DNA of 63,216 nucleotides from Bacillota bacterium. GTDB lineage: Bacteria; Bacillota; Dethiobacteria; DTU022. Under the pieces are notes generated by a model. That model was not told the origin of the DNA and ran no database searches. It saw only the letters and a program-made list of their open reading frames with translations. Both the position numbers and the translations under genes were made by a program. The stretch's first letter is position 1. Each line of letters begins with the position of its first letter. The stretch is taken from assembly GCA_012799185.1 (NCBI GenBank), contig JAAZLS010000009.1, positions 1 through 63,216 on the forward strand. Direction: 5' to 3'. This document shows positions 25,155-54,806 of the stretch, piece after piece.

Positions 25155-26693
25155 CTATTCTGGCTGGTTATGGTTGACCCCGTTGATTTTTAAAAGCTTG
25201 TTGAGACCGTCCAGGTATGCCTTCACGCTGGCCTCGACAATGTCGGTGCTAGTCCCCCGGCCGGTAATGGTTTTCTGTTTGCTTAACGACATGTTGAGCG
25301 ATACCTCTCCCAGGGCATCACGGCCCCGGGTCACCGCCCGCAACCGGTAGTTGTCCAGGAGGATATCGAGGCCGGCAATCTTGTTGATTGCATTGAAGGC
25401 GGCATCGATGGGACCCGAACCGACAGCCATCTCCTCAATTAATTCACCGTCATCCCGGATTAGCCGGATTACCGCTACCGGGATACTCTTGCTACCGCTG
25501 ACGGTCTGCAGGTAATCCAACCGGTAGGTCGGCTCGGCGGCGAAAAGAAAGTCGATGGCCAATGCCTCTAGATCCTCCAGGTAGACCTCTTTTTTCTTAT
25601 CAGCCAGCTCCAAATAGCGAGTATACAGCGTTTCCAGCTGTTCCTCCTCCAAGGTAAACCCTAACCGTTCCAGCTGGTGCTTAACGGCGTGACGCCCAGA
25701 GCGGGCGGTTAAAATCATCTGGGCCGCCTTGCCGCCGATAAGCTCGGCATCAATTATCTCGTAGGTTTCTTTATGTTTTAAAACCCCGTCCTGGTGAATC
25801 CCCGAGGAGTGGGCAAAGGCATTGACCCCGATTACCGCTTTGTTCATCGGGACCGGGATGCCGGTCAGCTTGCTTACAAGCCGGCTGGTACGATAAATCT
25901 CCTGTAGATTTAAGCCGGTATAGAAAGGATAATGGGACTTTTTAAGATAGAGGGCCACGGCGATCTCCTCCAGGGCGGCGTTACCTGCCCTTTCCCCGAT
26001 CCCGTTAATATTGCACTCTACCTGGCGGGCGCCATTTTCGATCGCCGCCAGGGAGTTGGCTACCGCCAGGCCCAGATCGTTGTGGCAATGCACACTTAGG
26101 GTCACCCGCTCCATTCCGGGGATATTTTCCCTTAGGCGCCGGATCAGTGCCCCGAACTCTTCCGGGAGGGCATAGCCCACGGTATCGGGAATATTGATCA
26201 CCGTCGCCCCGGCCTCGATAACCTGTTCCAAAAGGCGATAGAGATATTGTTCGTCGGAGCGGGTGGCATCCTCAGGGGAGTATTCGATATCGGAGGTAAA
26301 TTTTTTAGCGTATTTTACCGCCTCTACCGCCTGGTGTAGACAGGCCTCTGGATCCTGTTTCAACTTATAGCGCATATGGATCGGCGAGGAGGCGAGAAAA
26401 ACATGAATTCGGGGATGTTCCGCATCCTTAATTGCTTCCCAGGCGGAATCAATATCGCCCGGTAAACAGCGGGCCAAGGCACAGATTGCCGGCCCTTTAA
26501 CCTGGCGGGAGATCTCTCTGACCGCCTTAAATTCACCGGGGGAGGATATGGGGAAGCCGGCTTCAATTACATCTACCTTTAACCGGGCCAGCTGGCGGGC
26601 TACCTCCAATTTTTCATCGAAGTTCAGGCGAGCCCCGGGGGTCTGCTCACCATCCCGCAGAGTACTATCAAAGATATAAATTTTATTACTCAT
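25155..26693 (-). CDS. leuA: 2-isopropylmalate synthase
   Basis: DSTLRDGEQTPG and HCHNDLGLAVANSLAA are present, and the C-terminal LeuA allosteric domain is present (512 aa). Confidence 0.93.
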   Translation of the reverse strand: MSNKIYIFDSTLRDGEQTPGARLNFDEKLEVARQLARLKVDVIEAGFPISSPGEFKAVREISRQVKGPAICALARCLPGDIDSAWEAIKDAEHPRIHVFLASSPIHMRYKLKQDPEACLHQAVEAVKYAKKFTSDIEYSPEDATRSDEQYLYRLLEQVIEAGATVINIPDTVGYALPEEFGALIRRLRENIPGMERVTLSVHCHNDLGLAVANSLAAIENGARQVECNINGIGERAGNAALEEIAVALYLKKSHYPFYTGLNLQEIYRTSRLVSKLTGIPVPMNKAVIGVNAFAHSSGIHQDGVLKHKETYEIIDAELIGGKAAQMILTARSGRHAVKHQLERLGFTLEEEQLETLYTRYLELADKKKEVYLEDLEALAIDFLFAAEPTYRLDYLQTVSGSKSIPVAVIRLIRDDGELIEEMAVGSGPIDAAFNAINKIAGLDILLDNYRLRAVTRGRDALGEVSLNMSLSKQKTITGRGTSTDIVEASVKAYLDGLNKLLKINGVNHNQPE

Positions 26694-26712: not shown

Positions 26713-26970
26713 AAAAAATAAAGCCTTTCATCAAAGAGACGAAAGGCTGTTTTCGCGGTACCACTCTTTTTGTAATTAAAACATTAATTACCCGCTTGTT
26801 TGTGATAACGGTTCAATACCGGCCGCGCTTAATCTGGTTATTACCATTTCGGGCGGCAGCTCCCGGAGGAGTTTGCTTAAGCCCCCCTGCCGCCTTGCAC
26901 CAGCCGGCGGCTCGCTGTAAAGGCAGCTTAAGCTACTGGTTCCGATCCTGACCTGTTCTAAAGATAAATG
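26713..26970 (-). promoter_or_regulatory. T-box riboswitch leader of leuA
   Basis: The minus-strand RNA contains the T-box core AGAGUGGUACCGCG (26754-26766). It is followed by the terminator AGCCUUUC-gucucuuugau-GAAAGGCU-UUAUUUUUU (26713-26748). The upstream Stem-I-like region has an AGUA motif, a distal loop GGCUGGUGCAA and CUU/CUC (Leu) triplets. Confidence 0.8.
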
Positions 26971-33964: not shown

Positions 33965-34225
33965 CTACAATTTTTTGCCCCTGACACCGGCAATGGTGCT
34001 CCTGGTACCTGAGAATAACCCAATGGAGGATAACCCCAACACGGTTCCCATCATTAATGCCCTCTTAAAATCATCGGGTGATAGGTAATAAAAGGCAAAA
34101 AAATATCCCATTGCCATCGAACTTAAGGGCACAAAACGGGCCGGTAATCCGGAACGTTTCAGTAACTCGTTTAACCCTACCAGTACCGGGACTAGGGTTA
34201 TTCCGTAGACTGTAAACTGATCCAT
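33965..34225 (-). CDS. small two/three-TM membrane protein (holin-like topology), function unknown
   Basis: An 86-aa protein with hydrophobic segments and a basic C-terminus (GVRGKKL). No family could be assigned by eye. Confidence 0.35.
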   Translation of the reverse strand: MDQFTVYGITLVPVLVGLNELLKRSGLPARFVPLSSMAMGYFFAFYYLSPDDFKRALMMGTVLGLSSIGLFSGTRSTIAGVRGKKL

Positions 34226-34299
34226 AATTTTCCCCGCCTCTGTTAAAAAGCTCTTTGCTCCAGCCTATGTCCCGGTGATAGTGATTAGAACTGAGTGTA

Positions 34300-34743
34300 T
34301 CAATCTCCTTGAAATTCGATTTCCTTTAAATGCTGCTTATAGATAGAGCGAGACGGCTTCTTTAATGAGGGCAGCATACGCATAAATATATGCACCGGAC
34401 CCCGGGCGACAATCTGCCGCCGGGTCAAAGCTGTAATCATATCCAGGGAACCGCTCCAGCAGCGATGGGCGATATCCGCCTCCATGACTAAAGTTAGATC
34501 CGGCTCCAGGTCCGATTTGCCACAGTAAACCTTGAAATAACCGTTTTCCTGGCAGATATTTTTTGCATCAATGGTGATTTCAGAAGCGGGATTATCAAAC
34601 TGGTACTTTATGATCAGCCCGCAGTACTTGTATTTCGGCCCAATTTCTTCATGCATACTTATTTTTTTAATAAATTCTCCGATACACCGGTACAGATGCT
34701 GTTCATCTTTAAACACAGTTGCCAATTTAATCCCTCCTACCAT
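34300..34743 (-). CDS. SCP2 sterol-carrier-like domain protein
   Basis: The C-terminal pattern D..L.M.A.......G.L....A...R.I...G.......M..L resembles the SCP-2 fold. The call is weak and by eye. Confidence 0.4.
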   Translation of the reverse strand: MVGGIKLATVFKDEQHLYRCIGEFIKKISMHEEIGPKYKYCGLIIKYQFDNPASEITIDAKNICQENGYFKVYCGKSDLEPDLTLVMEADIAHRCWSGSLDMITALTRRQIVARGPVHIFMRMLPSLKKPSRSIYKQHLKEIEFQGD

Positions 34744-34983
34744 TTATATTTTCTACGGTCTACTCTATTTAATTCCCTAACCGGGTTACTACCTATTATG
34801 ACCCATTACCATCTTATTCAGGCCCGTATGATGGTATGAATAGTTTCCACATTATTTCCATAATTCCTGCCATAGATTAAATTTATTCTAGTACAACTCT
34901 TTAGTTAACTTAGATATATCATAAACCCGATCTTTAATCAACAGTTATAAATTATAGCTTTTAGGCAAAAGGAGTGTTATAAT

Positions 34984-36216
34984 TTGCATATGAAGATAAA
35001 GCGTACCCTGATAATAATATTTTCCCTGGTGGTACTGGCCCTTTTAGCCGGCTATCTCCTGGATCTACCCTGGTTTTCCGCTCTTTGGGCATCTACTCCC
35101 GGGCCTCCCCCTCCCATCGAAGAGCCGGAGCCCCCGCCGGAACCGACCCCCGATATACGCACCGCCCGGTTGGTCGCGGCCGGCGATATAATAGTGCATT
35201 TAACCCAGGTCGAACAGGCCTTTGCCGGTGGTAGTTATGATTTTACCCCCAGTTTTAGCTTTATAACTCCTAGCCTGCAATCGGCCGATTTAACAGTAGG
35301 CAATTTTGAGACCGTCCTAGCCGGTCCCGAGCGGGGTTATAGCGGTTATCCCGCCTTTAATACCCCGGATGAACTGGCGCAAAATCTAAAACAGGCCGGG
35401 TTTGATCTCCTCTCTACCGCCAATAACCATAGCCTGGATATGGGCATTAATGGCCTATTTAGAACGATTGACTGTTTGGAAGAGGCCGGCCTGGTCACCT
35501 TCGGCACCTACCGCCAGCCGGAGGAGCGCACGCCCCTGCTGGTGGAGGTAAACGGTATTAATCTATTTTTTACCGCCTATACGGAGTCGACCAACGGTAT
35601 TCCGGTGCCCGACGGGTACGATTACGCCATTAATTATATCCCAAATTTTAATATCCTGGATCCGATTATCAATGAGATAACCGTCGCCCGGGAAAAGGGG
35701 GCCGATCTGGTGATTGTTTACATGCACTGGGGCCACGAATACCACGTGCAACCTACCGATTTTCACCGGGACCTGGCCCGGCAGCTGGCTATAGCCGGGG
35801 CCGATATGATTATTGGTGGCCATCCACATGTAATGCAACCCCTGGAGTGGATCACCGTGGAGACGGATGACGGACCACCGCGGCAAGTGCTGGTCGCCTA
35901 CTCCTTGGGCAATTTTATCTCCAACCAGTTCCACTGGGTCCCTTACATTCCAACCCCCAAGGTCCAGTACGGCCTGCTGCTGGATGTGGAGATTTCCAAG
36001 GATATGGAGAGCGGCCTAACCCGGCTTAGCCGGGCCGACTATGATATCACCTGGGTTCACCGCAACTGGCGCCACCGGATACTGCCTCTCTCAGAGGTCC
36101 TTTCCTCCACTGCGCTGGACCAGTATAATCTTACCGAAGAGGAGCTGAGGGCCATCAAGGCCGAATACGACTGCCTTCGCGAGGAGATATTAGAGAAGTA
36201 TAATTTTAGCGATTAA
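34984..36216 (+). CDS. CapA-family (PGA_cap) metallophosphoesterase-like protein
   Basis: A signal anchor, then VAAGDIIVH, VGNFETVL, STANNHSLDMG, YMHWGHEY and GGHPHV, which are CapA/PgsA motifs. Confidence 0.8.
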   Translation: MHMKIKRTLIIIFSLVVLALLAGYLLDLPWFSALWASTPGPPPPIEEPEPPPEPTPDIRTARLVAAGDIIVHLTQVEQAFAGGSYDFTPSFSFITPSLQSADLTVGNFETVLAGPERGYSGYPAFNTPDELAQNLKQAGFDLLSTANNHSLDMGINGLFRTIDCLEEAGLVTFGTYRQPEERTPLLVEVNGINLFFTAYTESTNGIPVPDGYDYAINYIPNFNILDPIINEITVAREKGADLVIVYMHWGHEYHVQPTDFHRDLARQLAIAGADMIIGGHPHVMQPLEWITVETDDGPPRQVLVAYSLGNFISNQFHWVPYIPTPKVQYGLLLDVEISKDMESGLTRLSRADYDITWVHRNWRHRILPLSEVLSSTALDQYNLTEEELRAIKAEYDCLREEILEKYNFSD

Positions 36217-37416: not shown

Positions 37417-38853
37417 TTAATTTAACCAAAGCTGTTTCGTCCGTTCGGTAATCGGCCGGTGATAGAACAAAAGTATGGCCGGAATCAACAGAAACAGTAG
37501 ACGCCCGAAGATCGTGTTGGCAAATAAGATCAGTGCGCCCAGCCAGCGGTTCCTACCGCTATAAATACCCCGGATTGCCTCCCTGTCCACGGTTTTAATC
37601 ATGGCCCCGGTTTCGGACAGGGGGGGGTAATTGTCGATATCGACCCGGTATAACCCCTTCTCTATACCGATCACCCGCTCCACATAGGTAACATAGTGTT
37701 CCTCGAATAAAATGATCTGGCCAACTTCAACCTTGTCGTCGGGTTCAATCTGTTTAAAATAAACCAGATCATTGAGCATGATTTCCGGCTCCATGGTAGA
37801 AGACTTAAATATATAGGGAATTGTTCCCCGGAAGGAGACCTCCCTTCCCAGGGTAGAGGCATTAATCGCTAGAATTACCAGATTAAAAGAGAGGGCGGCC
37901 AGGATGAAGAGAATCAAGAACGAAACAGAGGCAACATCGAATATTTTGCGACGACGGGCCTGTCTCTTTCCATTGCCCAAGGCTCTCCCCCGCCCAGTTT
38001 TGGGGTCGATCAATACCACCCGCTCCCCGGGTGTTAGTATCCCATCATAACCGGTATCGGGTAGATAGTAGTACTTGGATATATTGCGGGCCATGACTAT
38101 ACAGACCAGGATAAATACAGAGACAATTGCCGCTGCTGCCGGTAGAAACGGTGAGCGACCGATATCAAATAGGTTGTAGAGATTTTGCATTGCGACCCGG
38201 TTTGACAGGATCGAATAATAGCCCAATTTTATTTTTAGTATTATTAATAGGATAAAGGAGAAGGCAATAAAATAGCGGGCACCGGTTATGGACTTAACAA
38301 AAGTTGAGAGGGTCATGGAGATAATAATCATAATAATGAGATCAATCAACCCGGCTAGGTACAGGGAGGGAAAATAGGCCGGGATCAGGCTATATTTTAA
38401 GAAATATGTCATAAAGGCCGTGAAGAAAAAACCTATGGTGTAAACAAATATTGTTGATAGCAGCAAGGCGGTCAACTTGGAAAAGATCATGGTTAGCGGA
38501 TTATAGCCCATCTTAACCAAGAGGTACCAGGAGTTTTGCTTTATCTCATAAAAAAAGAGGGAGTCATAGTTCAAAATATAGTAAAAGATATTTAAAACCA
38601 GGGCCACGTGGATATAGATATAGAGGGTTGAAAAATAGCTAGGCTGCATAATTTGCGGGATCGCCTCCAGGAGCACACTCTCCCTCAGCGGTTGAGCAGC
38701 AAAGAAAACTGCGAAGGAGATAAGACCTAAAAAGAGAGCAAAGACCACCCTTTGCTTGCTACTGACTATATTTTCCGTATAGCCCTGGCGCAGCTCTTTA
38801 CTAAAATAGCTGTGCTTATAAATCATATTGCCGGTCAATCTCCTCGTAGGCAT
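37417..38853 (-). CDS. polytopic membrane protein fused to a SipW-like (S26B) signal-peptidase domain with substituted catalytic residues
   Basis: About 6 TM segments span residues 35-265, followed by a basic linker, a TM anchor, an S26-like domain (KSSTMEPEIMLNDLVYF...VTYVERVIGI...YRVDIDNYP) and a C-terminal TM. Compared with the neighbouring SipW (SGSMEP / THRII / KGDN), the nucleophile Ser is Thr (ACC, 37795-37797) and the His is Glu (GAG, 37678-37680). An alternative start is the ATG at 38826. Confidence 0.6.
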   Translation of the reverse strand: MPTRRLTGNMIYKHSYFSKELRQGYTENIVSSKQRVVFALFLGLISFAVFFAAQPLRESVLLEAIPQIMQPSYFSTLYIYIHVALVLNIFYYILNYDSLFFYEIKQNSWYLLVKMGYNPLTMIFSKLTALLLSTIFVYTIGFFFTAFMTYFLKYSLIPAYFPSLYLAGLIDLIIMIIISMTLSTFVKSITGARYFIAFSFILLIILKIKLGYYSILSNRVAMQNLYNLFDIGRSPFLPAAAAIVSVFILVCIVMARNISKYYYLPDTGYDGILTPGERVVLIDPKTGRGRALGNGKRQARRRKIFDVASVSFLILFILAALSFNLVILAINASTLGREVSFRGTIPYIFKSSTMEPEIMLNDLVYFKQIEPDDKVEVGQIILFEEHYVTYVERVIGIEKGLYRVDIDNYPPLSETGAMIKTVDREAIRGIYSGRNRWLGALILFANTIFGRLLFLLIPAILLFYHRPITERTKQLWLN

Positions 38854-39814
38854 TTTGAACCGTTTTCGGGTTTACCTTCATGGACCGGGGTGCGAAACCG
38901 CTCCTGATAATATTTTCATAAATTAAATGGGGATCAGTATTATCCTCACCGGGTTCACTAATAAGCAGGCGCCGGCCCTTTAATGTAAAATGGAGTTCGG
39001 GCAGCCGGGGAGCAAGCCGCTCCATAATTTGAGGGGCCTCCGGATCTTCGATTATAAGTAGGATCTTGTCATAGGTCAGGCGCAGCTCCTCTACCGTTCC
39101 TTGGTAGATCATTCTTCCTTCCGCTACGTAAGCCGTGTGGCTGCAGCTTTTTTCAATTAACCGACAATCTTTGCTGCCCATAATAAGGGTCTTCCCTCGC
39201 TCCTTAATCAGAGCGGCAATATGGGCGATCGCTGTAGAGAGCATCCTGTTAAACCGGTATTCGGGAACATTAAAGACAATCATCACGCTCTCCGAATAGG
39301 CGGTAACCAGCAAGGTGACTACTACCTTTTCCTCCCTGGTTAGTCGCGCGATCGGGGTTAGAGAAATAGGCCCCAAGCCAATCGACAACAGCAGCTCGAA
39401 AATCTGTTCCTGCCGGTAAACTGCGCCGCTACCCCTTTTAGCAGTGGCAAACATGAGAAATTCCAACACATTCATATTATCATAAAGCATGGTCGGACCG
39501 CAGATATAGAAAACATGTTCCAAGATCACCCGCTTATTGCGCATCATACCCCGCTCGACCAGGATACAGCGGCCGGCGTGATAAGGTTTAATATTGGCCA
39601 TTACCTCTAGCAATAGCTTGATTTCCAAAAGGGAGCGCCCATAGATACCCCATGATTCCGGCCTTTTAATCACCAGGTTAATATTTTCCAGAACCCGCCG
39701 CGGCCGCTCTCCCCGGGTATGATAATGTTCGATCGAAGAGAGCCCCTCCATAAAGACCACCGTCTCCACGGTATTGAAGCCCGGCTCTAACTGTCTTCTT
39801 ACCGTCCGCTTCAT
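38816..39814 (-). CDS. ABC-ATPase-like protein with degenerate Walker A, signature, Walker B and H-loop (predicted pseudo-ATPase)
   Basis: The overall ABC NBD layout is present (VLENINLVI..PESWGIYG...; ...MIYQGTVEEL), but every catalytic motif is replaced. Walker A reads GIYGRSLLEIK instead of GxxGxGKT. The signature reads LTREEK instead of LSGGQ. Walker B reads VMIVFNVPE instead of hhhhDEP. The H-loop reads GSKD instead of SH. Confidence 0.55.
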   Translation of the reverse strand: MKRTVRRQLEPGFNTVETVVFMEGLSSIEHYHTRGERPRRVLENINLVIKRPESWGIYGRSLLEIKLLLEVMANIKPYHAGRCILVERGMMRNKRVILEHVFYICGPTMLYDNMNVLEFLMFATAKRGSGAVYRQEQIFELLLSIGLGPISLTPIARLTREEKVVVTLLVTAYSESVMIVFNVPEYRFNRMLSTAIAHIAALIKERGKTLIMGSKDCRLIEKSCSHTAYVAEGRMIYQGTVEELRLTYDKILLIIEDPEAPQIMERLAPRLPELHFTLKGRRLLISEPGEDNTDPHLIYENIIRSGFAPRSMKVNPKTVQNAYEEIDRQYDL

Positions 39815-39838
39815 CTCTATTGCCCCGCTATTTTTTTA

Positions 39839-40372
39839 TTAAGTAAATGGCATTTTCCATAAAAGTACAGCAATTACCCGGTCGGGGGTAAGCAGTTCCA
39901 GGTCCGGGGAGCTGATCGGATTATCCCCCTTGGTCCGATAGCTGACAGTGCCATCGTCAGCAACTATAACCTCAATAATCCGGTGGGTAATAGTTAAACC
40001 GGACTCGTTCCTAAAGGTAACAATCTCATTTTCCTTAAGTCTAGACGCATCCTTAGGCTTACGGGATAGGATCACCGCCCCCACGGGCAGAGTGGGCTCC
40101 ATGCTCCCCGATTCAATCATGTAGAGCTGGTATCCCAAGAGATCGGGGGTTTTCCCCCGGCTTTTTGCCACCTGGATCGAGACCAGTGCCGCCAGCATTA
40201 AAACAATTACAATCGAAAAAAATACCCGCCCGGTAACCCTGGCCAACCGCGATCTCTCTTTTTTCCGCCGGCCTCGTCTCCCCTTAGCGCGGAATATAGC
40301 CTGGCGCATGGCCTCGATCTGTTCCGGGGTAGTATACTTTGGGTCCTGCATGGCCCCAGGCCCCTCCTCCAT
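39839..40372 (-). CDS. sipW: signal peptidase I, SipW/archaeal-ER type (S26B)
   Basis: A single N-terminal TM, then ESGSMEPTL, ITHRII and TKGDNP, so all catalytic boxes are intact. The start may be the second ATG, 21 nt downstream, which follows GGAGGAGGGG. Confidence 0.8.
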   Translation of the reverse strand: MEEGPGAMQDPKYTTPEQIEAMRQAIFRAKGRRGRRKKERSRLARVTGRVFFSIVIVLMLAALVSIQVAKSRGKTPDLLGYQLYMIESGSMEPTLPVGAVILSRKPKDASRLKENEIVTFRNESGLTITHRIIEVIVADDGTVSYRTKGDNPISSPDLELLTPDRVIAVLLWKMPFT

Positions 40373-40407
40373 CCTTCCTATCTCCCATCTATATTACCAT
40401 AATTACG

Positions 40408-40467
40408 AAGCACCGGGGACGGTCCTTTTTGCTTCATAAGCACCGGGGACGGTCCTTTTTGCTTCAT
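40408..40467. repeat. perfect tandem duplication of a 30-nt unit
   Basis: AAGCACCGGGGACGGTCCTTTTTGCTTCAT occurs at 40408-40437 and again, identically, at 40438-40467. Each unit carries the inverted repeat (G)AAGCA...TGCTT(C). Confidence 0.95.
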
Positions 40468-40478
40468 TAAAAGAGGTA

Positions 40479-40498
40479 GCCCACCCTTTAGGGTGGGC
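40479..40498 (-). terminator. hairpin downstream of the TasA-like genes (partial terminator/processing site)
   Basis: The minus-strand RNA reads GCCCACCC-uaaa-GGGUGGGC followed by UACCUCUUUU. The 8-bp GC stem is strong, but the U-tract is interrupted. Confidence 0.5.
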
Positions 40499-40551
40499 GG
40501 GTGTCGCAAATAGATGGTGTCGGCAAGGTTAATCCCCTAGGATCCAGGAAT

Positions 40552-41118
40552 TTAGTCTTCGTCTGTAGCTTCTTGTTGGGTGCCGGTTACCGATACGGTA
40601 ACTGCGCTGCCGTAGTCGGCTCCGGCGTACTGTGCATCCTCACTCATAGTTTGCCCTTCAGGTATTTCATCGGTTCCAAGGGGCCACTCAATCTTTACAT
40701 TGTAGGTTTTTTCCTGGCCAGTTTCAGCCAACGGGAACTCGTCGGTAAATTTGCCGTCGTCATCCAGATTTATGCTTTGGTCCTCCTCATCAGTTACTGA
40801 AACAACCAGGGGTTCTATAGCATCTTTTCCCTCAGCTGCAGCAAGGGTAACTGCAAACTCCAGATCCATGGCGGTTTCGCTAACCAGGGCCTCCTCATAG
40901 TTCTTTACACTAAATTTCCATTCAACAGTGTCACCGGGGGCGATTTTAATATTCTCCTCAAAAGTATTTGTCTCACCCGGCTTTAGGATAAACTCCTTGG
41001 CCACCACGCTGCCCGCGGCCAAGTCATCAATGGTAATCGAGTACGCGGAAAGGGTGCCGGCAATAAGCGAGGTTGTTATTAACAACACCAGGGCCACAAT
41101 CAAAAGTGTTCTTTTCAT
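40552..41118 (-). CDS. TasA/BsaA/camelysin-like exported protein with SipW-type signal peptide
   Basis: The signal peptide is MKRTLLIVALVLLITTSLIAGTLSAYS (compare the GGT.A.F class). The mature part is a beta-rich domain with APGDTVEWKFSVKN and a terminal VTVSVTGTQ (compare TasA FSFEATQ). It is a paralog of the N-domain of the upstream gene, and its ATG overlaps that gene's TGA. Confidence 0.6.
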   Translation of the reverse strand: MKRTLLIVALVLLITTSLIAGTLSAYSITIDDLAAGSVVAKEFILKPGETNTFEENIKIAPGDTVEWKFSVKNYEEALVSETAMDLEFAVTLAAAEGKDAIEPLVVSVTDEEDQSINLDDDGKFTDEFPLAETGQEKTYNVKIEWPLGTDEIPEGQTMSEDAQYAGADYGSAVTVSVTGTQQEATDED

Positions 41119-42053
41119 TTTCTTTCTTCCTCCTTGTTATTCCAACTAGATTTATTAAACTCACAAGTCAAACTAACAGTCTTCCCGTTTACCCAGACAT
41201 CTTTAATCGGTTCTGTTCCTGTTCCGGTCGCCCAACCACCGAAGGATATACTCCCACCCGGTGAAATATTTTTATTATAGTTTATTGGATAATAGTATCT
41301 ATAGGTGCCGGTAGGCAAATTGTCGTGATCCTCTCTGGCCCCAGCCCATATAGCCGTTATTTGATCATTGTCTAATCTAAAGTTGATCTCCCATCCTTCG
41401 ATCGTTTCTTCCATATTATTCGTAATGGTAATCTGAAATTCAAAGTTGCCATCACCCCATACCCGGGTAGCCTCATATAGTACATGGATACCGTCTTGCG
41501 GCACTTCAGGATCGGGGATATCAAAAGGTAGCTGGGAGGCGATGGCGCTGACCCGGATCGTGTTTCCAAGACCTTCTGGACCATTAAGATAATCGTTATT
41601 GCTCCCGTCGGGCCAGTGAATCTCTACCGTATAATCGCACTCTTGCCCTATTGCTGCAAAGAGAAATTCTCCATAAAGGTCAAAGGTCCCGGTACCGGTA
41701 ACGGAATCGAGAACTTTACCTTCGGCATCCTTTACGCTGACGATTAAAGATTCGATGGCACTTTTGCCTTCGGTGGGGGTAACGTGAAAGGTCAACTTAT
41801 AATAGAGGTCAGTTTCGGTGACAAGGTTTCCATCATGGTTTTTTACTTTAAACGGCCAGTTAATGGTCTCGGCAGGCCCGATCGGTTCGTTCATGGCGAA
41901 GGAGTCGGTACCATCACCTAAAAAGATAAATTCTTTCGCTACCGTAGAGCCGTCAGCCAGATCAACGGTAGCCGAATAGGAGGCCAGGGTCCCGGCCAGG
42001 ATGGACCCGGCGATTAACAAGACCAACAGTAAAATAAGTAATAATCTTTTCAT
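41115..42053 (-). CDS. TasA/BsaA-like exported protein fused to a C-terminal CBM2-like carbohydrate-binding module
   Basis: The signal peptide is MKRLLLILLLVLLIAGSILAGTLASYS and the TasA-like domain is shared with the 40552-41118 product. The C-terminal ~110 aa read VLYEATRVWGDGNFEFQITITNN..ETIEGWEINF......ITAIW......NISPGGSISFGGWATG......VWVNGKTVSLTC, which fits the CBM2 pattern (W.GGF...V.V.N....GW...F......W....N..I..G....FGF.......NG..C). Confidence 0.6.
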   Translation of the reverse strand: MKRLLLILLLVLLIAGSILAGTLASYSATVDLADGSTVAKEFIFLGDGTDSFAMNEPIGPAETINWPFKVKNHDGNLVTETDLYYKLTFHVTPTEGKSAIESLIVSVKDAEGKVLDSVTGTGTFDLYGEFLFAAIGQECDYTVEIHWPDGSNNDYLNGPEGLGNTIRVSAIASQLPFDIPDPEVPQDGIHVLYEATRVWGDGNFEFQITITNNMEETIEGWEINFRLDNDQITAIWAGAREDHDNLPTGTYRYYYPINYNKNISPGGSISFGGWATGTGTEPIKDVWVNGKTVSLTCEFNKSSWNNKEEERK

Positions 42054-42062
42054 TGCGCCACC

Positions 42063-42100
42063 TTATTTTTATAAAAAAATTGCCACCTAAAACATGTAGT
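42063..42100 (-). terminator. imperfect hairpin plus U7 overlapping the 3' end of the aptamer candidate (possible expression platform)
   Basis: The minus-strand RNA reads GCCAGUUGACACUACAUGUUUUAGGUGGC-AA-UUUUUUU. The outer GCCA/UGGC and inner CUA/UAG pairs form, but the interior is poorly paired. The 5' arm is shared with the aptamer 3' end. Confidence 0.35.
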
Positions 42101-42172
42101 GTCAACTGGCTATCTCAATTCCCTCCAGGGAACCGGACCCTTTAGTTTTGCGCCGTGGACTCGCGCCCACGT
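42089..42172 (-). promoter_or_regulatory. candidate GEMM-I-like (cyclic-dinucleotide) riboswitch aptamer in leader of the TasA-like operon
   Basis: The minus-strand RNA reads GUGAAAGGCAAC-[GUGGGC-GCGA-GUCCAC]-GGCGCAAAAC-UAAAGGGUCCGGUUCCCUGGAGGGAAUUGAGAUAGCCAGUUGACAC. This echoes the GEMM-I layout GGCAAAC-[hairpin with GNRA loop]-GGACGCAAAGCC...UAGCCAGCUGCC. It deviates at hallmark positions: one A fewer in GGCAAAC, and GGCGC instead of GGACGC. Confidence 0.4.
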
Positions 42173-42272
42173 TGCCTTTCACTCGAGGAATTTTATTTTA
42201 TTGATACAATAGTATTGCATAAAATTCCTACCGTGTCAACGCTAGAATTAATTATTGGAAGATTCGCCCGGC

Positions 42273-43076
42273 TTATCGGCCCTTGGCCAGGAGCAGGCGA
42301 TCCTGCTGTAGCTCCTCTCCGCTGGCTTCATAGAACATATCTACCAGGTCGCTAACGGTCAGGTTCTTCCGATCGGGGCCGGAAACATCTAGAATAATTT
42401 TTCCTTCATGCATCATAATCGTCCGGTGGCCCATTTTAAGGGCTTGTTCCATATTGTGGGTGACCATCAGGGTGGTGATCCCCTGGTTTTCGATTAGCTT
42501 TTCGGTTAGCTCCAAGACCGTGTTGGCGGTTTTAGGATCTAGGGAGGCGGTATGTTCATCCAGCAAAGCCAGCTTAGGTTCCTTCAGGGTGGTCATCAGC
42601 AAGGCCAGGGCCTGTCTCTGTCCCCCCGAGAGCAACTTGACCGGTGAGTTTAATCTTTCCTCAAGCCCCAACTGAAGGCTTAACAGCCGCTCTTGGAAAA
42701 AAACCCGGTTAGAGTCGGCAATAGCCCAGCGCAGCCGACGCTTATCTCCCCGGCGAAGGGCCAGGGCCAAATTTTCCTCTACAGTTAGGGAGGCAGCGGT
42801 ACCCACCATCGGATCTTGAAATACGTGACAAATAGAGGCCGCCCTCCTGTAATCAGGGAGGCGGGTTACCTCCTCACCGTTTAAACTAACCGTCCCTTCC
42901 TCTGCTTGGTAGATACCGGCAATGCATTTCAACAGTGTTGATTTACCGGCCCCGTTACCGCCAATAATAGTGGTGAACTGCCCTTTTTCCAGGGAGAGGC
43001 TAACCCTATCCAGGGCCACCCTTTCATTTATGCTTCCTGGGTAAAAAATTTTAGTTAACGATTTTACATTTAACAT
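42273..43076 (-). CDS. ABC transporter ATP-binding protein (COG1101-type)
   Basis: Intact Walker A GGNGAGKST, signature LSGGQRQ, Walker B LALLDEHT and H-loop VTHN. Confidence 0.88.
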   Translation of the reverse strand: MLNVKSLTKIFYPGSINERVALDRVSLSLEKGQFTTIIGGNGAGKSTLLKCIAGIYQAEEGTVSLNGEEVTRLPDYRRAASICHVFQDPMVGTAASLTVEENLALALRRGDKRRLRWAIADSNRVFFQERLLSLQLGLEERLNSPVKLLSGGQRQALALLMTTLKEPKLALLDEHTASLDPKTANTVLELTEKLIENQGITTLMVTHNMEQALKMGHRTIMMHEGKIILDVSGPDRKNLTVSDLVDMFYEASGEELQQDRLLLAKGR

Positions 43077-43103
43077 TACTTGAAACCTCGCTCTTAATAA
43101 TGG

Positions 43104-44003
43104 CTACGCTGATAGCCTCTTGCTACCGGCATTGGCCTGGAATTTTTTACTTAGCTCAGGGGCAATCAATGCCAGCGTAACCAGAAGGGCAGTAAACAGG
43201 CGTAAATCCGTATGTTCGATAAAACCCAACCTTAACACGAGGGCAATCGCCAGCCGATAGACTACGGAACCAAAGACAACCGCTACTACTTTTCCCAGGA
43301 TTGATTTAACCCCAAAGAGGACCTCGCCGATGATTACCGAGGCCAGGCCGACAATAATGGTCCCGATTCCCATATTCACATCGGCAAAACCCTGGTACTG
43401 GGCAATCATCGCCCCGGAGAGGGCGACCAGGGCATTGGAGAGGCTTAATCCTAAGATCTTCATGTTATCGGTGTTCACGCCCTGGCTGCGCATCATAATC
43501 TCATTGTCACCGGTGGCCCGTACCGCCAGCCCACTTTCAGTATGGAGGAAACTATAAAGTAATAACACCAGGATTACCACTACGACACCGGCAGCAAGAT
43601 ATTCACCGGTGCGGGCGGATAGGCCGCCTAAACTAAAGTAATCGTAAACCGTTGTTGCCCGAAGCAGGGAGATGTTGGGGCTATTCATGATCCGCAAGTT
43701 AATCGAATAGAGACCGATCGAGGTTAATATACCTGAAAGCAACGGCGTAATTGAAAACTTGGTATGGAGGATACCGGTAATTAAACCGGCTACCGCCCCC
43801 AACAAGGGTGCGACCAGGGTAGCTAGAAAAGGGTTGGTCCCGGTGGCAATTAAAGAAGCGGTGATGGCTGCCCCCAGGGGCAGGCTGCCATCAACCGTCA
43901 AATCAGCATAATTTAAAACACGGAAAGTTAAAAAAACCCCTAAAACCATGATTGCATACAGCAATCCTAATAATATGGCTCCATGTATTACCACTGCGGA
44001 CAC
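43104..44003 (-). CDS. ABC transporter permease (COG4120-type)
   Basis: A 299-aa polytopic membrane protein of the branched-chain-type permease fold, in an operon with the ATPase and binding protein. Confidence 0.8.
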   Translation of the reverse strand: MSAVVIHGAILLGLLYAIMVLGVFLTFRVLNYADLTVDGSLPLGAAITASLIATGTNPFLATLVAPLLGAVAGLITGILHTKFSITPLLSGILTSIGLYSINLRIMNSPNISLLRATTVYDYFSLGGLSARTGEYLAAGVVVVILVLLLYSFLHTESGLAVRATGDNEIMMRSQGVNTDNMKILGLSLSNALVALSGAMIAQYQGFADVNMGIGTIIVGLASVIIGEVLFGVKSILGKVVAVVFGSVVYRLAIALVLRLGFIEHTDLRLFTALLVTLALIAPELSKKFQANAGSKRLSA

Positions 44004-44106
44004 CGGTGCACCCCCTGCTAAAATATCGCCAGCACGGGGCAGCCCGTATAAACCTCCAGCGGGTCTACCCCGTGGGAAAAGGTAATGTTAAATCATACGG
44101 TTTTTA

Positions 44107-45120
44107 CTATTCTCTAAAAGTTTCCGCCCGATCCAGCAACGACTGGGGAAGTTCCAGTCCCAGCCTTTCGGCGGCGGTTATATTAACCAGGTCTACAAAA
44201 TTATCTTGACCCTCAATCGGCATGGTGGCCGGTTCGGCCTCACCGCGAAGGATCTTGGCAGCCATTATGCCGGTCTGGTACCCCAGCTGGTAGTAATCGA
44301 TACCGGCAACGGTAGCCAGGGCTCCCGCTTTAACCGAGTTTTCTTCGCCGGTGATGACAATTATTTTTTCCTCTTCAGTTACTTTTAGAACCGACTCTAT
44401 TGCCGCCACTACCGTGTTATCGGTGGGAATATAGATAGCATCGGCTTCGACCAGCGCCTCGGCCGCCGCCAGCACATCGTTCCCGGTGGGGGCCGCCTTC
44501 TCAACAAGAGTTAACCCTAATCTGGGCGCCTCCTCGCGGGCTAACTCTACCTGAAACACCGAGTTGGTTTCACCGGGATTATAGATAACTCCTACTGTTT
44601 TTGCCTCCGGGTTTATCTCCTTGATCAGAGCCAACTGATCCTCTACTGGGTTTAAATCGGTAGTGCCAGAGACATTGCCCCCCGGTTCTTGGGGGTCCAT
44701 CACGCCCACATCCTCCGGATTAGTAACCGCCGTGATTAGGATTGGAATCTCCTGGGTAGCTTGGGCCGCCGCCTGGGCTGCCGGGGTAGCGATAGCTAAA
44801 ATCACATCAACCTCATCCGCCACAAACCCATCGGCAATCGAACGGGCGGTTGCCTGCTCCCCTTCGGCGCATTTATAACTTATATTTAAATTGGTCCCCT
44901 CTTTAAATCCTTCATCCGCCAAGGCATCGATAAAGCCCTCTTTGGCCTGGTCCAGCGCTTCGTGCCGGATGATCTGAACAATGCCAACATTGTAAACTAC
45001 CTCTTCGCCCTCCCCGTTCCCGCTGTCACCTTCCGGTTCGGCCGGTGAACATCCCAGTAGACCAAACAACATGACCCCGATTAACAATAGTAATGATAAC
45101 TTTAATATATTTTTACTCAA
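44107..45120 (-). CDS. ABC transporter substrate-binding lipoprotein (COG2984 / ABC_sub_bind family)
   Basis: The lipobox is LLGC. The Gly/Glu-rich linker is followed by the VGIVQI..H.ALD....GF...L and PIL..AVT motifs of the PF04392-like family. The start codon is TTG. Confidence 0.8.
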   Translation of the reverse strand: MSKNILKLSLLLLIGVMLFGLLGCSPAEPEGDSGNGEGEEVVYNVGIVQIIRHEALDQAKEGFIDALADEGFKEGTNLNISYKCAEGEQATARSIADGFVADEVDVILAIATPAAQAAAQATQEIPILITAVTNPEDVGVMDPQEPGGNVSGTTDLNPVEDQLALIKEINPEAKTVGVIYNPGETNSVFQVELAREEAPRLGLTLVEKAAPTGNDVLAAAEALVEADAIYIPTDNTVVAAIESVLKVTEEEKIIVITGEENSVKAGALATVAGIDYYQLGYQTGIMAAKILRGEAEPATMPIEGQDNFVDLVNITAAERLGLELPQSLLDRAETFRE

Positions 45121-51868: not shown

Positions 51869-52129
51869 TTAACGAGGCTGTATAATTAATTTTATAGCGG
51901 TTCTCTCCTCACCATCGATCATGATATCCGTAAAAGCTGGAATACAGATAAGATCAATTCCTCCGGGAGCAACAAATCCCCTGGCGATAGCCACTGCTTT
52001 CACCGCTTGATTTAGAGCACCTGCACCGATTGTTTGTATCTCTGCTCCGCCCCGTTCACGCAATACTCCTGCTAAGGCACCGGCCACAGAATTCGGATTG
52101 GATTTTGCTGAAACCTTTAATATCTCCAT
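51869..52129 (-). CDS. spoVS: stage V sporulation protein S
   Basis: MEILKVSAKSNPNSVAGALAGVLRE....EIQ.IGAGA.NQAVKA.AIARGF is near-invariant SpoVS sequence. Confidence 0.93.
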   Translation of the reverse strand: MEILKVSAKSNPNSVAGALAGVLRERGGAEIQTIGAGALNQAVKAVAIARGFVAPGGIDLICIPAFTDIMIDGEERTAIKLIIQPR

Positions 52130-52279
52130 CTACCAAATGTACCCCCTTAAAGATATTACATTGTTAAGGTCCGTATTTTAATCTCACAATTATAGGTTCG
52201 TCTTTTAATCTTACATTCCTGCCCAAATTGTGCCATATTAGTTATGTTTTGAAATATTCTATATCCGTTATGGGGGCTA

Positions 52280-52789
52280 CTACTTATTTAGCACATATAC
52301 CTTTCCTTCTTCGCGAAATGCAAATAATGTTTTTACCTTTTTTTCCCCTTGGATTAACAAATATTCCAGGTAGTCGTCTTCAGGCCGGGAATCCACAAGA
52401 AAATCCAGGGGCTCCTTACGGTAGTCATCGACTAGATCGGCGCCAAAATTGTCTGTAATCACGCTGCTGACCAGGTTTACCTCCTCCCGGGTTAAAGGAT
52501 CCTTGGCGAAATAGAGATCCAGCCGGGTTAGCCCCTGGTAGTAATCCTTGCAAAATTTAATCCCTGACGCCTCTGTTTTTAAAAAATGACAATAACTATT
52601 CCAGATCTCTACCATCCTTTTACAAAACTGGCGATAGCGATCGACTGTTATCTTATCTTTAATCATAAAGCTAAAACAGTAGGATAAGGTATCCAGGTCG
52701 TAGTTAATAGTAAATATTTCTGGGTGATCTAGTAAAAAGCTTGCGACCAAGTTTATTTGGTATGTATCTTCAAAAGTTGCCTCTTTCAA
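52280..52789 (-). CDS. hypothetical protein
   Basis: A 169-aa acidic, AT-rich ORF with no motif recognised. It occupies the slot between rny and spoVS. Confidence 0.4.
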   Translation of the reverse strand: MKEATFEDTYQINLVASFLLDHPEIFTINYDLDTLSYCFSFMIKDKITVDRYRQFCKRMVEIWNSYCHFLKTEASGIKFCKDYYQGLTRLDLYFAKDPLTREEVNLVSSVITDNFGADLVDDYRKEPLDFLVDSRPEDDYLEYLLIQGEKKVKTLFAFREEGKVYVLNK

Positions 52790-52860
52790 TTTGTTCCCCC
52801 CACCTAAATAGTAAACTTAAGTTCCATGGATGGTTCAAAAATACCTTCTTTTTAATATGT

Positions 52861-52888
52861 AAAAAAAAGTGCCCGAAGGCACTTTTTT
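52861..52888. terminator. bidirectional terminator after rny
   Basis: A8-GTGCC-cgaa-GGCAC-T6. On the minus strand this reads GUGCC-UUCG-GGCAC-U8. Confidence 0.85.
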
Positions 52889-52926
52889 GCTGTTTCCCAT
52901 GATCAAACGGCCGAAATTGCCTGTTT

Positions 52927-54462
52927 TTACTTGGCATAACTCACAGCCCGGGTTTCGCGGATTACTGTTACTTTAATCTGTCCGGGGTATTCCAGTTCTC
53001 TTTCAATTTTCTTGACGATATCCCGGGCGACCTTCACCGAAGCATAGTCATCAATCCGCTCTGGTTTTACCATTATCCTAATTTCCCTCCCAGCCTGAAT
53101 CGCATAGGCCTTGTCTACCCCTTCAAAGGAGTCGGCAATCTCTTCTAACTTCTCCAGCCGTTTTATATAAGACTCCAGGGTTTCCCGGCGGGCCCCCGGA
53201 CGGGCGGCCGAGATAGCGTCAGCCGACTGGATTAATACTGCTTCTGGGGTTTGGAAATCAACATCGCCATGGTGGGCGGCGATCGCGTTAACAATTTCCG
53301 CCGACTCGCGGTATCTTTTTGCCAGCTCGGCACCGGTTTGGGCGTGGGAACCCTCTACCTCGTGATCGACCGCCTTGCCAATATCGTGCAACAGACCGGC
53401 CCGCTTGGCAAAGTTAACATCTAACCCCAGCTCGGCGGCCATCACCGCGGCCAGATGGGCCACTTCAATTGAATGTTGTAATACATTTTGCCCATAACTG
53501 GTGCGAAAGCGAAGCTTACCCAGGCAGATTACTATCTCCGGGTGGATTCCATGGACACCGGTCTCGAAAATGGCCCGTTCCCCTTCTTCCCGGATCTGTA
53601 TCTCCACCTCTTTTCGGGTTTTGGCAACAATCTCTTCGATCCGCGCCGGGTGGATACGGCCATCGCTAACCAATCGTTCCAGGGATATACGGGCAATTTC
53701 CCTACGCACCGGGTCAAATCCCGAGAGGATAACCGCCTCCGGTGTGTCATCGATGATTAAATCAATCCCGGTAAGGGTCTCCAGGGCCCGGATATTACGT
53801 CCCTCCCGTCCGATAATCCGTCCCTTCATTTCATCGTTGGGTAGGGATACTACCGATACGGTTGATTCAGAGACATGATCGGCGGCGCAACGCTGAATAG
53901 CCGTAGTAATGATTTCCCGGGCCTTTTTATCAGCCTCATTTTTAGCCCGTGTCTCTATCTCTTTTACCATTACAGCCATTTCATGGGTAATCTCGGATTC
54001 AATCCGCTGCAACAGTTGATCTTTCGCCTCGTCGGAGGTCATCCCCGATATCTGTTCCAGTAGGGATTGCTGTTTTTGATATAACTCCGCTAGATTAGCC
54101 TTAATCTTATTGTTTTCTTCCTCTATTTTCTTGAGATCTTCTTCCTTCTTCTCGATTTTAAGATTTTTTCTATCCATGCTTTCTTCTTTTTGCATTAACC
54201 GCCGTTCCATGCGCTGGAGCTCGGAGCGTCTTTCACGACTCTCCTTTTCAAGCTCGTTTCGAAGACGATGCATCTCTTCCTTGGCCTCCAGCGCTTTCTC
54301 CCTTTTAATTGCCTGGGCTTCACTTTCAGCCTGCTCAACAATTTTTCTGGCTGTCTCTTCAGCCGAAGCGGTGCGTACTTCTACCAGGTATTTCCTAAAA
54401 ATATAGCCTAAGCCAACGCCGGCCAGCAGCGTAATGACAATAACTAGCACTTTGACACCCAA
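52927..54462 (-). CDS. rny: ribonuclease Y
   Basis: An N-terminal TM, a long coiled coil, a KH domain ([12 protein letters not shown]) and an HD domain (LLHDIGKA). The start is set at the TTG at 54462, 5 nt after AGGAGGTG; the ORF-track start at 54489 has no SD. Confidence 0.93.
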
Positions 54463-54498
54463 ATTATCACCTCCTAATAAGTAAATCAAAAATGGAAC

Positions 54499-54527
54499 AA
54501 AAAAAACTGTGTTTCAGGCACAGCTTA
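54499..54527 (-). terminator. hairpin plus U8 immediately upstream of the rny RBS
   Basis: The minus-strand RNA reads AAGCUGUG-ccugaaa-CACAGUUUUUUUU. It ends about 24 nt before the rny SD. Confidence 0.55.
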
Positions 54528-54754
54528 AAAGAGAAAGGATTACATTCGGGTATATCCCTTTATAGTATAATATTTCGATACAAGAGACAAAAGGGCATTC
54601 TTAATAAACGAATATAAATTGCAGATCTATCCATAGTGCCCGGCGATTTTAAGGCACCAGGTCCTTCTCTTTTAAGTTATAAATACAACTTAACCGGTCC
54701 CTTATTATTACTGCCAGAAAAATTAAATAGCAAACATTACTATTACCTGTCCCT

Positions 54755-54784
54755 ATTTTAAACCATAGCCTTGTATTATGTCAA
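54755..54784 (-). promoter_or_regulatory. possible promoter of the rny leader / an sRNA
   Basis: Minus strand: TTGACA (54784-54779), an 18-nt spacer, then TAAAAT (54760-54755). Confidence 0.4.
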
Positions 54785-54806
54785 TAAATATTGGCCTCGT
54801 CTCCCA

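Follow-up and report, generated by a model that had tools for sequence, protein, structure and literature searches.

SipW-dependent fibres of the TasA superfamily are a major and expanding class of biofilm scaffolds in bacteria and archaea, and to our knowledge their priming and surface retention are understood only for Bacillus, with TapA. A locus in a Dethiobacteria genome (Bacillota) raises the question of why a SipW-type signal peptidase and two secreted proteins should be encoded together with an ATPase-like and a peptidase-like protein that both appear to be catalytically dead. The locus lies on contig JAAZLS010000009.1 (assembly GCA_012799185.1), of which positions 1 to 63,216 were analysed (the window), and comprises a structured leader and five open reading frames (ORFs), all on the minus strand, for proteins of 312, 188, 177, 332 and 478 amino acids (aa; here t312, t188, SipW, g332 and g478). 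These ORFs agree exactly with an initial annotation made from the sequence alone, and all seven cassette parts listed there were recovered in place, with the leader aptamer running 14 nt past its annotated end. We give an even chance to the reading that the operon specifies a cyclic di-GMP (c-di-GMP)-induced, SipW-dependent fibre or adhesin with an inert membrane platform, g332 plus g478, that derives from an ATP-binding cassette (ABC) transporter of the ABC-2 type.

The product of g332 (38816-39814) gave weak matches to ABC nucleotide-binding domains (NBDs; ~31 bits) when searched alone, and neither it nor g478 matched any Pfam model at E ≤ 1, ABC_tran (PF00005) and ABC2_membrane included. 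A profile of 26 g332 family members, by comparison, matched 79 solved ABC NBDs in the PDB, the best being 1vpl (E = 5.7e-13). In the alignment with 1vpl, the Walker A G-K-T stands opposite E-I-K, so that the Walker A lysine is paired with isoleucine; the Walker B D-E stands opposite N-L, and the H-loop histidine opposite lysine. The same replacements recurred across 121 g332 sequences: the Walker A region reads G59-x-S-x-[FYL]-E-I-K (E64 in 116/121, I65 in 105/121, K66 in 97/121), the LSGGQ signature is replaced by L-T-[KR]-E-E-K, the Walker B region reads F-N182-[LFV]-P, with N182 and P184 present in all 121 sequences, and the H-loop reads T-[QKR]. The C-terminal domain of g332 resembles those of PmtC and DrrA-type exporters. 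On these alignments g332 is a predicted pseudo-NBD, homologous to the ABC NBD fold with all four ATPase motifs replaced. The initial annotation had described this state for the window protein; it holds across the family, and the profile alignments yielded no intact catalytic residues for either g332 or g478.

The 478-aa ORF of g478 (37417-38853) encodes three parts: a six-transmembrane (TM) ABC-2-like domain, a basic cytoplasmic loop and a SipW-like pseudo-peptidase. The ORF exists as annotated, and the start conserved in the family is Met10 (38826), which overlaps the g332 stop by 11 nt and makes a 469-aa protein the likely product. Hydropathy and the positive-inside rule place the N-terminus inside; after six TM segments come a loop of 57 residues, 12 of them Lys or Arg, then TM7 (312-330), an external domain (331-438) and a last TM segment (439-457). 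When the g478 family was aligned with the cassette SipW family using hhalign, the two matched with 94.9% probability (E = 4.7e-8): F-K-S-S-T353-M-E-P of g478 is aligned with I-E-S-G-S90-M-E-P of SipW, and Y-V-E392-R with I-T-H130-R. The same part of g478 (aa 312-466) matched model NF046067 with 33.5 bits. Both substitutions, Thr at the Ser position and Glu at the His position, are found in 119/121 close homologs, and the module retains the pocket motifs of box B (T-M-x-P) and box E (D-x-D-x-Y-P). An exhaustive hidden Markov model (HMM) search with the g478 family against 1.84 billion representatives retrieved 712 proteins at E ≤ 1e-3, of which 136 remained at E ≤ 1e-10 and 85 at E ≤ 1e-30. Among representatives at 50% identity, box B is almost always S-T-M-P and the general-base position is occupied by E, S, A, R, K, Q, M or D, whereas the free SipW-like proteins that score just below the g478 family all carry S-S-M-P ... 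H-R. The module is accordingly an S26B paralog whose catalytic dyad is lost and whose pocket motifs are maintained by selection. Thus, the description of a second SipW-like module with its own anchor and C-terminal TM segment, with Thr for Ser and Glu for His, was borne out.

The origin of the membrane domain is less certain. In the AlphaFold2 (AF2) model of g478, the predicted local distance difference test (pLDDT) values were 80-95 for the TM domain and 37-73 for the external domain. Foldseek matched the TM domain to NosY, ABCG5/G8/G2 and PmtD with a probability of 0.99 and a TM-score on target of ~0.5, and a profile of the whole g478 family had zero matches in the PDB. The modelled fold makes an ABC-2 permease origin likely, not proven: the six TM segments stand, while the name permease, as first applied to this protein, draws on fold matches of low significance and on the pairing of the genes. 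Six other proteins (P0445, P0447, P0456, P0457, P0463 and P0470) match the TM domain of g478 only; their C-terminal parts, of 390-580 aa, are different or unrecognizable, and they may show earlier or alternative permease fusions. A few loci have a shortened g478 or one that is broken into two ORFs (L053:947-2291, L069:7299-8707 and L077:2326-3830), and the L053 copy has a riboswitch ahead of it where g332 would be expected. Such copies may reflect frameshifts, assembly errors or real degeneration.

To determine how far the five genes belong together, we used a degenerate-pattern scan, with one genome per species, which yielded 79 loci in Clostridia, and mapped the five window proteins onto every ORF of these loci. 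The genes sipW, g332 and g478 are adjacent in that order in 75 of the 79; three of the remaining four are cut by contig ends and one (L053) is aberrant. All-against-all clustering of the ORFs around the loci returned only three broadly conserved families, namely SipW plus g478 (79 loci), g332 (76) and the fibre-like proteins (71), and no conserved sortase, LPXTG anchor, TapA-like or DUF5305 gene. Homologs of g332 and g478 hence co-occur with sipW and fibre-like genes essentially always, and this check, proposed with the initial annotation, came out in its favour. The carriers include many species of Desulfosporosinus, Candidatus Dichloromethanomonas, Anaerobacterium chartisolvens, Ruminiclostridium sufflavum, Sporobacter, Mageeibacillus, Lutispora, Syntrophomonadaceae, Christensenellaceae, Candidatus Limiplasma and numerous other Bacillota, and matches in protein databases add Desulfitobacterium, Dehalobacter, Oxobacter and Gracilibacter. 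Two clades can be told apart. In the closer one (≥ 46% identity) a CBM2-fused protein and a short paralog are encoded upstream, and CBM2 orthologs are present in 42 loci; in the distant one (29-39% identity; Limiplasma, Christensenellales and R. sufflavum) CBM2 is absent and one to four fibre paralogs lie downstream, or one upstream. Because the replacements in g332 and g478 are conserved over at least 79 species, they are family-wide features, and we rejected pseudogene decay as their cause.

In contrast to these two proteins, the cassette SipW (39839-40372) has kept its catalytic boxes. It belongs to the S26B signal peptidases I and scored 72.5 bits with TIGR02228 (cutoff 51.85); S90 (box B, SM-x-P), H130 (box D, H-R) and D150 (box E, G-D-N) are invariant in all 19 cassette orthologs aligned, and a single N-terminal TM segment spans residues 50-68. 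With the equivalog model for Bacillus SipW it scored 100 against a cutoff of 190 and aligned to positions 5-124 only of the 189 in that model, which marks it as SipW-type rather than as an ortholog of the Bacillus enzyme. Judged by its intact boxes, the protein is a working signal peptidase, in line with its first description. On near-identical contigs sipW has been called from the second ATG (Met8, MQDPKYTT) rather than the first, and the conserved N-terminus of the family, KYTT.EQIE, is compatible with either the first or the second.

What does this peptidase act on? The two proteins encoded upstream of it are related to each other: the N-domains of t312 (41115-42053) and t188 (40552-41118) are 46% identical (E = 4e-31). 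Their genes meet in an ATGA start/stop overlap, with the t188 Shine-Dalgarno sequence AAGGAGG inside the last t312 codons, and both features of this junction are as originally read. The t312 product combines a SipW-type signal peptide, an acidic beta-sandwich and a C-terminal CBM2 module (aa 191-291) that matched Pfam CBM_2 (PF00553) with 47.2 bits over model positions 3-99 of 101, well above the cutoff of 24, so that the CBM2-like module first noted on this protein is confirmed. PDB matches of the module are 6f7e and 1exg. Three Trp residues form the planar face of the CBM2a module in Cex, and in the alignment to 1exg t312 keeps W, W and Y at these positions; as read from the sequence, apparently only the C-terminal Cys of the Cex-type disulfide is present. 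The t188 product is a secreted acidic beta-sandwich protein (AF2 model, pLDDT 81.5, residues 28-37 disordered) whose mature form contains 38 D/E as opposed to 9 K/R, and 175 homologs of it were found. In this family G21, T22 and Y26 at the signal junction and an AKEF motif are invariant or nearly so; the subunits as a group share the junction A-G-T-L-[AS]-x-Y, in which T22 and Y26 are invariant, and the mature N-terminus, their most conserved segment, is disordered in the monomer model. This junction is of the SipW-cognate type G-T-x-A-x-[FY], and sipW adjoins. Some sources label the homologs as 'SipW-cognate class signal peptide' or 'Camelysin metallo-endopeptidase'. In addition, an I-A-P-G-[DE] strand locally matches the L-K-P-G-D strand of TasA in hhalign, at an equal distance from the cleavage site. 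With one to four paralogs per locus, these proteins are probably SipW-dependent subunits of the donor-strand type, and t188 is the probable major fibre subunit.

In the distant clade, L050:11694-16183 carries three or four fibre paralogs after g478, and similar arrangements occur in L045, L055, L056, L058, L059, L064 and L077. In nine loci of this clade the fibre paralogs are followed by a gene for a ~658-aa protein that lacks Pfam domains and has a Pro/Thr linker and a SipW-type junction (T-G-A-Y-F); this protein may be a tip or adhesin in place of the CBM2-fused paralog.

The leader of the operon points to its control. The GEMM-I-like element reported upstream of t312 proved to be a full-length c-di-GMP-I aptamer (42098-42186; Rfam RF01051, model positions 1-87), with a score of 46.4 bits against a gathering score of 35, and of 63 bits with a covariance model (R1) made in this analysis. 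A promoter-like site with TTGACA, a 17-nt spacer and a TG-extended AATACT (42211-42239; consensus scan, 10/12 matches plus TG) lies 25 nt upstream of the aptamer, a distance that fits a transcription start, although its function is a prediction. Between the aptamer and t312, a candidate expression-platform hairpin, GCCAGUUG...UUUAGGUGGC followed by U7 (42073-42110), forms in both the minimum free energy and the centroid folds (z = -2.85). This hairpin draws its 5' arm from the 3' strand of the second aptamer helix, the same bases being paired in the Rfam alignment. With this shared strand, aptamer and terminator hairpin would be mutually exclusive, and we infer from the sequence that the leader is an ON switch in which c-di-GMP binding favours read-through.

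To see whether this control is general, the related loci were scanned as well. The Rfam model detected the aptamer in one of seven loci; a motif screen followed by a covariance model from 23 aptamers gave 27 strong matches, spread over the window and 20 loci. In at least 17 of these 20, from both clades, the aptamer lies immediately 5' of a fibre gene, and in the clade with downstream fibre genes it is placed between g478 and the first subunit gene. Such placement suggests that the riboswitch acts specifically on the subunit genes. As predicted from these aptamers, c-di-GMP-I control of the cassette is recurrent but not universal; a universal c-di-GMP-I leader was rejected on the counts of 1/7 loci with Rfam and 20/79 with the covariance model. 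Six loci have tandem aptamer pairs directly upstream of fibre-like genes (L025:6026-6425, L066:5731-5918, L067:5784-5971, L070:3428-3615, L065:6297-6491 and L071:129-321), and L025 bears one more, at 13089-13189, on the downstream side of the cassette and ahead of another gene.

Further down, the intergenic region between t188 and sipW contains a terminator- or attenuator-like hairpin, GCCCACCC-TAAA-GGGTGGGC, with 8 bp (7 GC) and a T-tract (40469-40498). In 36 of 55 related loci the last of the upstream fibre genes likewise has a strong hairpin with T-tract behind it, which suggests that an attenuator between structural and machinery genes is a recurrent design. In the window the hairpin is followed by a perfect 2x30-nt tandem repeat of ATGAAGCAAAAAGGACCGTCCCCGGTGCTT (40408-40467; Tandem Repeats Finder score 120), so that both elements of this region had been described correctly. 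The repeat occurs once in the window, with 0 matches expected by chance. It is identical in L080 and L081, two independent, near-identical contigs from biogas-fermenter metagenomes that share the flanking genes, and this ruled out an assembly artefact. A possible TG-extended -10 element (TGGTAATAT) and the sipW Shine-Dalgarno sequence lie just downstream of the repeat. The genes of the cassette overlap or abut, suggesting translational coupling.

Several known systems share parts of this design. Like tapA-sipW-tasA of B. subtilis, sipW-tasA-calY of B. cereus and sipW-bsaABC of C. perfringens, the cassette has an S26B SipW beside secreted paralogous subunits with the G-T-x-A-x-[FY] junction and a conserved mature N-terminus, and both it and these matrix operons are tied to a biofilm lifestyle. 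Compared with tapA-sipW-tasA, its subunits are much smaller (~150 aa mature) and below the Peptidase_M73 and TIGR04090 thresholds, one of them is fused to CBM2, and a TapA-like protein is missing, the accessory place being taken by the pseudo-NBD and the permease::pseudo-SipW protein. The Bacillus matrix operon is controlled by SinR/Spo0A-type regulators, while the cassette is predicted to be under c-di-GMP-I riboswitch control. Small acidic subunits whose N-terminus is a donor strand, the role proposed for it here, are also known from AbpX, AbpA, Tafi and thread loci, as are minor or tip paralogs (10.64898/2026.01.04.697558; PMC9245690). A preprint on AbpX describes TasA-superfamily loci in Bacillota and archaea that encode a dedicated signal peptidase (SPase) I, in some cases one of 10 TM segments, together with anchors, enzymes of c-di-GMP signalling and DUF5305 as accessory protein, and describes no ABC-like or pseudo-peptidase partner; AbpX fibrils are members of the TasA superfamily, Ca-dependent and strongly acidic, and the cassette subunits are likewise acidic (10.64898/2026.01.04.697558). 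The cassette thus resembles AbpX-type loci in combining a dedicated SPase I with an 'SPase accessory' membrane protein and, for the bacterial loci, in the tie to c-di-GMP. By description it is set apart from them by its ABC-derived pair, a dead multi-TM S26 protein and a separate small SipW, where AbpX-type loci have a DUF5305 accessory protein and an active 10-TM SPase I.

The best functional analogy comes from transporters that carry a peptidase-derived domain, namely ABC exporters of the HlyB type and peptidase-containing ABC transporters (PCAT) with their C39-like domain. In HlyB this domain no longer has its catalytic residue and works in substrate binding or as a chaperone. The cassette differs in that its domain is of the S26 rather than the C39 clan, extracellular and C-terminal rather than cytoplasmic, its NBD is dead where that of HlyB is active, and its TM fold is probably ABC-2/type V-like and not of the HlyB type. 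ABC-2/type V exporters (NosFY, PmtCD, ABCG, DrrAB/GldA) likewise have separate, overlapping genes for NBD and transmembrane domain (TMD), and they provide the best sequence matches of g332 (1vpl, the PmtC C-terminal domain, GldA and DrrA models); unlike them, the cassette pair has replaced ATPase motifs and a C-terminal S26-like module. As to the leader, class I aptamers with a likely termination platform precede adhesin and pilus genes in Clostridioides difficile and the B. cereus group (PMC3649979; PMC11477304), the difference being that the genes regulated here encode SipW-dependent subunits. Our searches of the full-text literature returned no report of a c-di-GMP riboswitch on SipW-dependent subunits and no description of a cassette of sipW, pseudo-ATPase and permease::pseudo-SipW. 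The g332/g478 accessory pair therefore appears to be undescribed, as the initial annotation had suspected, and the c-di-GMP riboswitch link appears to be unreported.

How might the parts work together? We propose that high c-di-GMP stabilizes the aptamer and takes up the 5' arm of the terminator, so that both subunit genes would be transcribed, while the hairpin after t188 would limit read-through and keep SipW, g332 and g478 at lower levels. The subunits would be exported by Sec and cut by SipW after A-G-T-L-A, which would bare the conserved N-terminus x-Y-x-x-x-I-D-x-L-A-x-G-S-V-V-A-K-E-F, a likely donor strand for polymerization; the CBM2a-type module of t312 would attach the fibre to a polysaccharide such as cellulose or chitin. 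In the membrane, g332 and g478 may form an NBD2-TMD2-like complex of the ABC-2 type without canonical ATP binding or hydrolysis. The external domain of g478, with its Ser/His dyad lost and the box B/E pocket kept, would bind the signal-peptide or donor-strand region; either by passing subunits on to SipW or by keeping the basal one in place, it would prime the fibre and anchor it in the membrane. That this domain binds the junction or the N-terminal strand is suggested by its pocket motifs, its paralogy to SipW and the lack of another conserved anchor or chaperone around the loci. Complex formation by g332 and g478, substrate binding, anchoring or priming, and donor-strand polymerization are the steps that we infer.

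A number of observations weigh against this account. Neither t312 nor t188 matched Peptidase_M73 (PF12389) at E ≤ 1 in Pfam or the BsaA family model TIGR04090, and no match to the signal-peptide model TIGR04088 was reported. Of 29 members of the subunit family, six had sub-threshold matches to Peptidase_M73 (best E = 0.0028) and one had a match to TIGR04090 below the cutoff (E = 0.031). Alignment to verified TasA by hhalign gave 20.9% probability over 29 columns, which is no evidence of homology. A Foldseek search of the t188 model against the PDB returned nothing at E ≤ 1e-3 and placed TasA (8aur, 5of1) outside the top 50; the best of its weak matches was the donor-strand pilin FimG, with donor strand (E = 3e-3, TM-score 0.33-0.43), and further weak matches to jelly-roll folds are a hint only. 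The fibre-family profile found only noise among all PDB chains (S-layer Sap, E = 0.004) and no TasA, AbpA or thread subunit. Consequently, of the label 'TasA/BsaA-like' in the initial annotation the remote resemblance stands and family membership does not: by their sequences, the subunits are at most remote members of the TasA superfamily, and they are not TasA/BsaA by any threshold tested. To this are added, on the membrane side, the low confidence of the modelled g478 external domain, the poor Foldseek E-values for the TM domain (0.065 or worse), and the failure of any Pfam permease model to match g478 or its N-domain-only relatives. Thr at the Ser position of g478 could in principle be a nucleophile, approximately three quarters of the loci have no detectable c-di-GMP-I aptamer, and both the interaction of g332, g478 and SipW and the formation of fibres by the subunits are deduced from sequence.

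In another explanation, the secreted proteins are monomeric or cell-surface carbohydrate-binding adhesins or a coat that merely use SipW for export, while g332 and g478 do something else at the envelope, for instance in sensing, immunity or retention. That neither sequence nor structure searches gave a significant match among solved donor-strand filaments, TasA and AbpA included, fits this view, and CBM2 by itself suggests substrate adhesion in cellulolytic consortia, L080 and L081 coming from a biogas fermenter. We nevertheless consider it improbable, because one to four paralogs, a conserved mature N-terminus, acidity and a dedicated SipW are hallmarks of TasA-superfamily filament loci, and strict synteny makes the secreted proteins the likely targets of g332 and g478. 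If they do, they might act through SipW: the pseudo-domain would pair with SipW as an activator or specificity setter, or as a brake that competes for signal peptides. The g478 domain is a SipW paralog with its pocket motifs kept, sipW is directly upstream in strict adjacency, and the cassette SipW covers only part of the Bacillus SipW model and has one TM segment, lacking the C-terminal one that g478 keeps. A regulatory role of this kind would leave the conserved ABC-2-like TM domain and the cytoplasmic pseudo-NBD unexplained, however, and a pure inhibitor in obligatory 1:1 synteny would be unusual; we regard it as rather unlikely. Finally, the pair could still be active, either as a non-canonical nucleotide-driven exporter of subunits, polysaccharide or cleaved signal peptides, or as a Thr peptidase with another base. 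High conservation of E64-I65-K66, N182-x-P184 and T353 indicates selection on these sites, and the C-terminal domain of g332 is like those of PmtC/DrrA-type exporters. Yet the Walker A Lys, the Walker B Asp and Glu, LSGGQ and the H-loop His are all gone together, we know of no ABC transporter that works without all these motifs, and the general-base position of the peptidase is not conserved across the wider family. An active machine is therefore very improbable. The inert membrane platform is the reading we prefer.

A stronger form of the platform reading is that g332/g478 is the first doubly dead ABC transporter::signal-peptidase chimera to be described: an ABC-2 exporter and a SipW paralog would have been fused, have lost catalysis and have become an obligatory base in the membrane, as primer, anchor or usher-like chaperone, for a hitherto unrecognized family of c-di-GMP-controlled, SipW-dependent fibres in Clostridia. 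We put this forward tentatively and think it may well be wrong. Were it true, g478 would be the first S26 pseudo-peptidase to which a role can be assigned, and the pair would represent a new way to start and hold donor-strand fibres at the membrane of Gram-positive bacteria. More speculatively still, the remodelled, conserved pseudo-nucleotide site of g332 could bind another ligand, e.g. c-di-GMP. The module itself is compact, with five strictly conserved genes and ~85 representatives at 50% identity, and its carriers range over Desulfosporosinus, Desulfitobacterium, Dehalobacter, Christensenellales and cellulolytic clostridia; its accessory role is apparently filled by two pseudoenzymes, one from an ABC exporter and one from the signal peptidase itself. 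If g332 and g478 do form a platform, this would be a new case of enzyme-to-scaffold conversion and a likely receptor for signal-peptide or donor-strand segments, with a direct link at the RNA level between c-di-GMP and the matrix fibres of bioremediation, biogas and gut anaerobes. Several carriers are cultured, which makes the proposal directly testable.

Base composition had been taken as a sign of horizontal transfer, on the grounds of ~32% GC in one line of g332-g478 sequence against ~57% in a clpB line. This contrast was overstated: the cassette genes have 45-53% GC, compared with a window mean of 53.6% (SD 3.6), and their GC content at third codon positions (GC3) is 0.543 compared with 0.589 ± 0.048, with single genes at 0.47-0.60. 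The low GC of g478 lies in codon positions 1 and 2, a reflection of its hydrophobic residues, and lowish GC3 values are found only in the two subunit genes (0.47 and 0.51). As the GC3 difference is within ~1 SD, recent horizontal acquisition is not supported by AT-richness. GC is lowered to a similar degree in the right-hand third of the window. Three 1-kb windows of ~40-41% GC (34001-35000, 52001-53000 and 54001-55000) are below any part of the cassette, and ORFs 52280-52789 and 54807-55484 have GC3 values of 0.47-0.48.

Directly upstream of the cassette promoter, the window encodes an intact and unrelated ABC uptake system (42273-45120, minus strand) with an ABC_sub_bind lipoprotein, a BPD_transp_2 permease and an ATPase that has canonical GGNGAGKST, LSGGQ and LLDE motifs. 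The latter is an internal contrast to the degenerate g332, and the synteny is kept in L080 and L081. A T-box leader (26732-26958, minus strand; 124 bits, gathering score 93) was found upstream of a 512-aa ORF (25155-26693).

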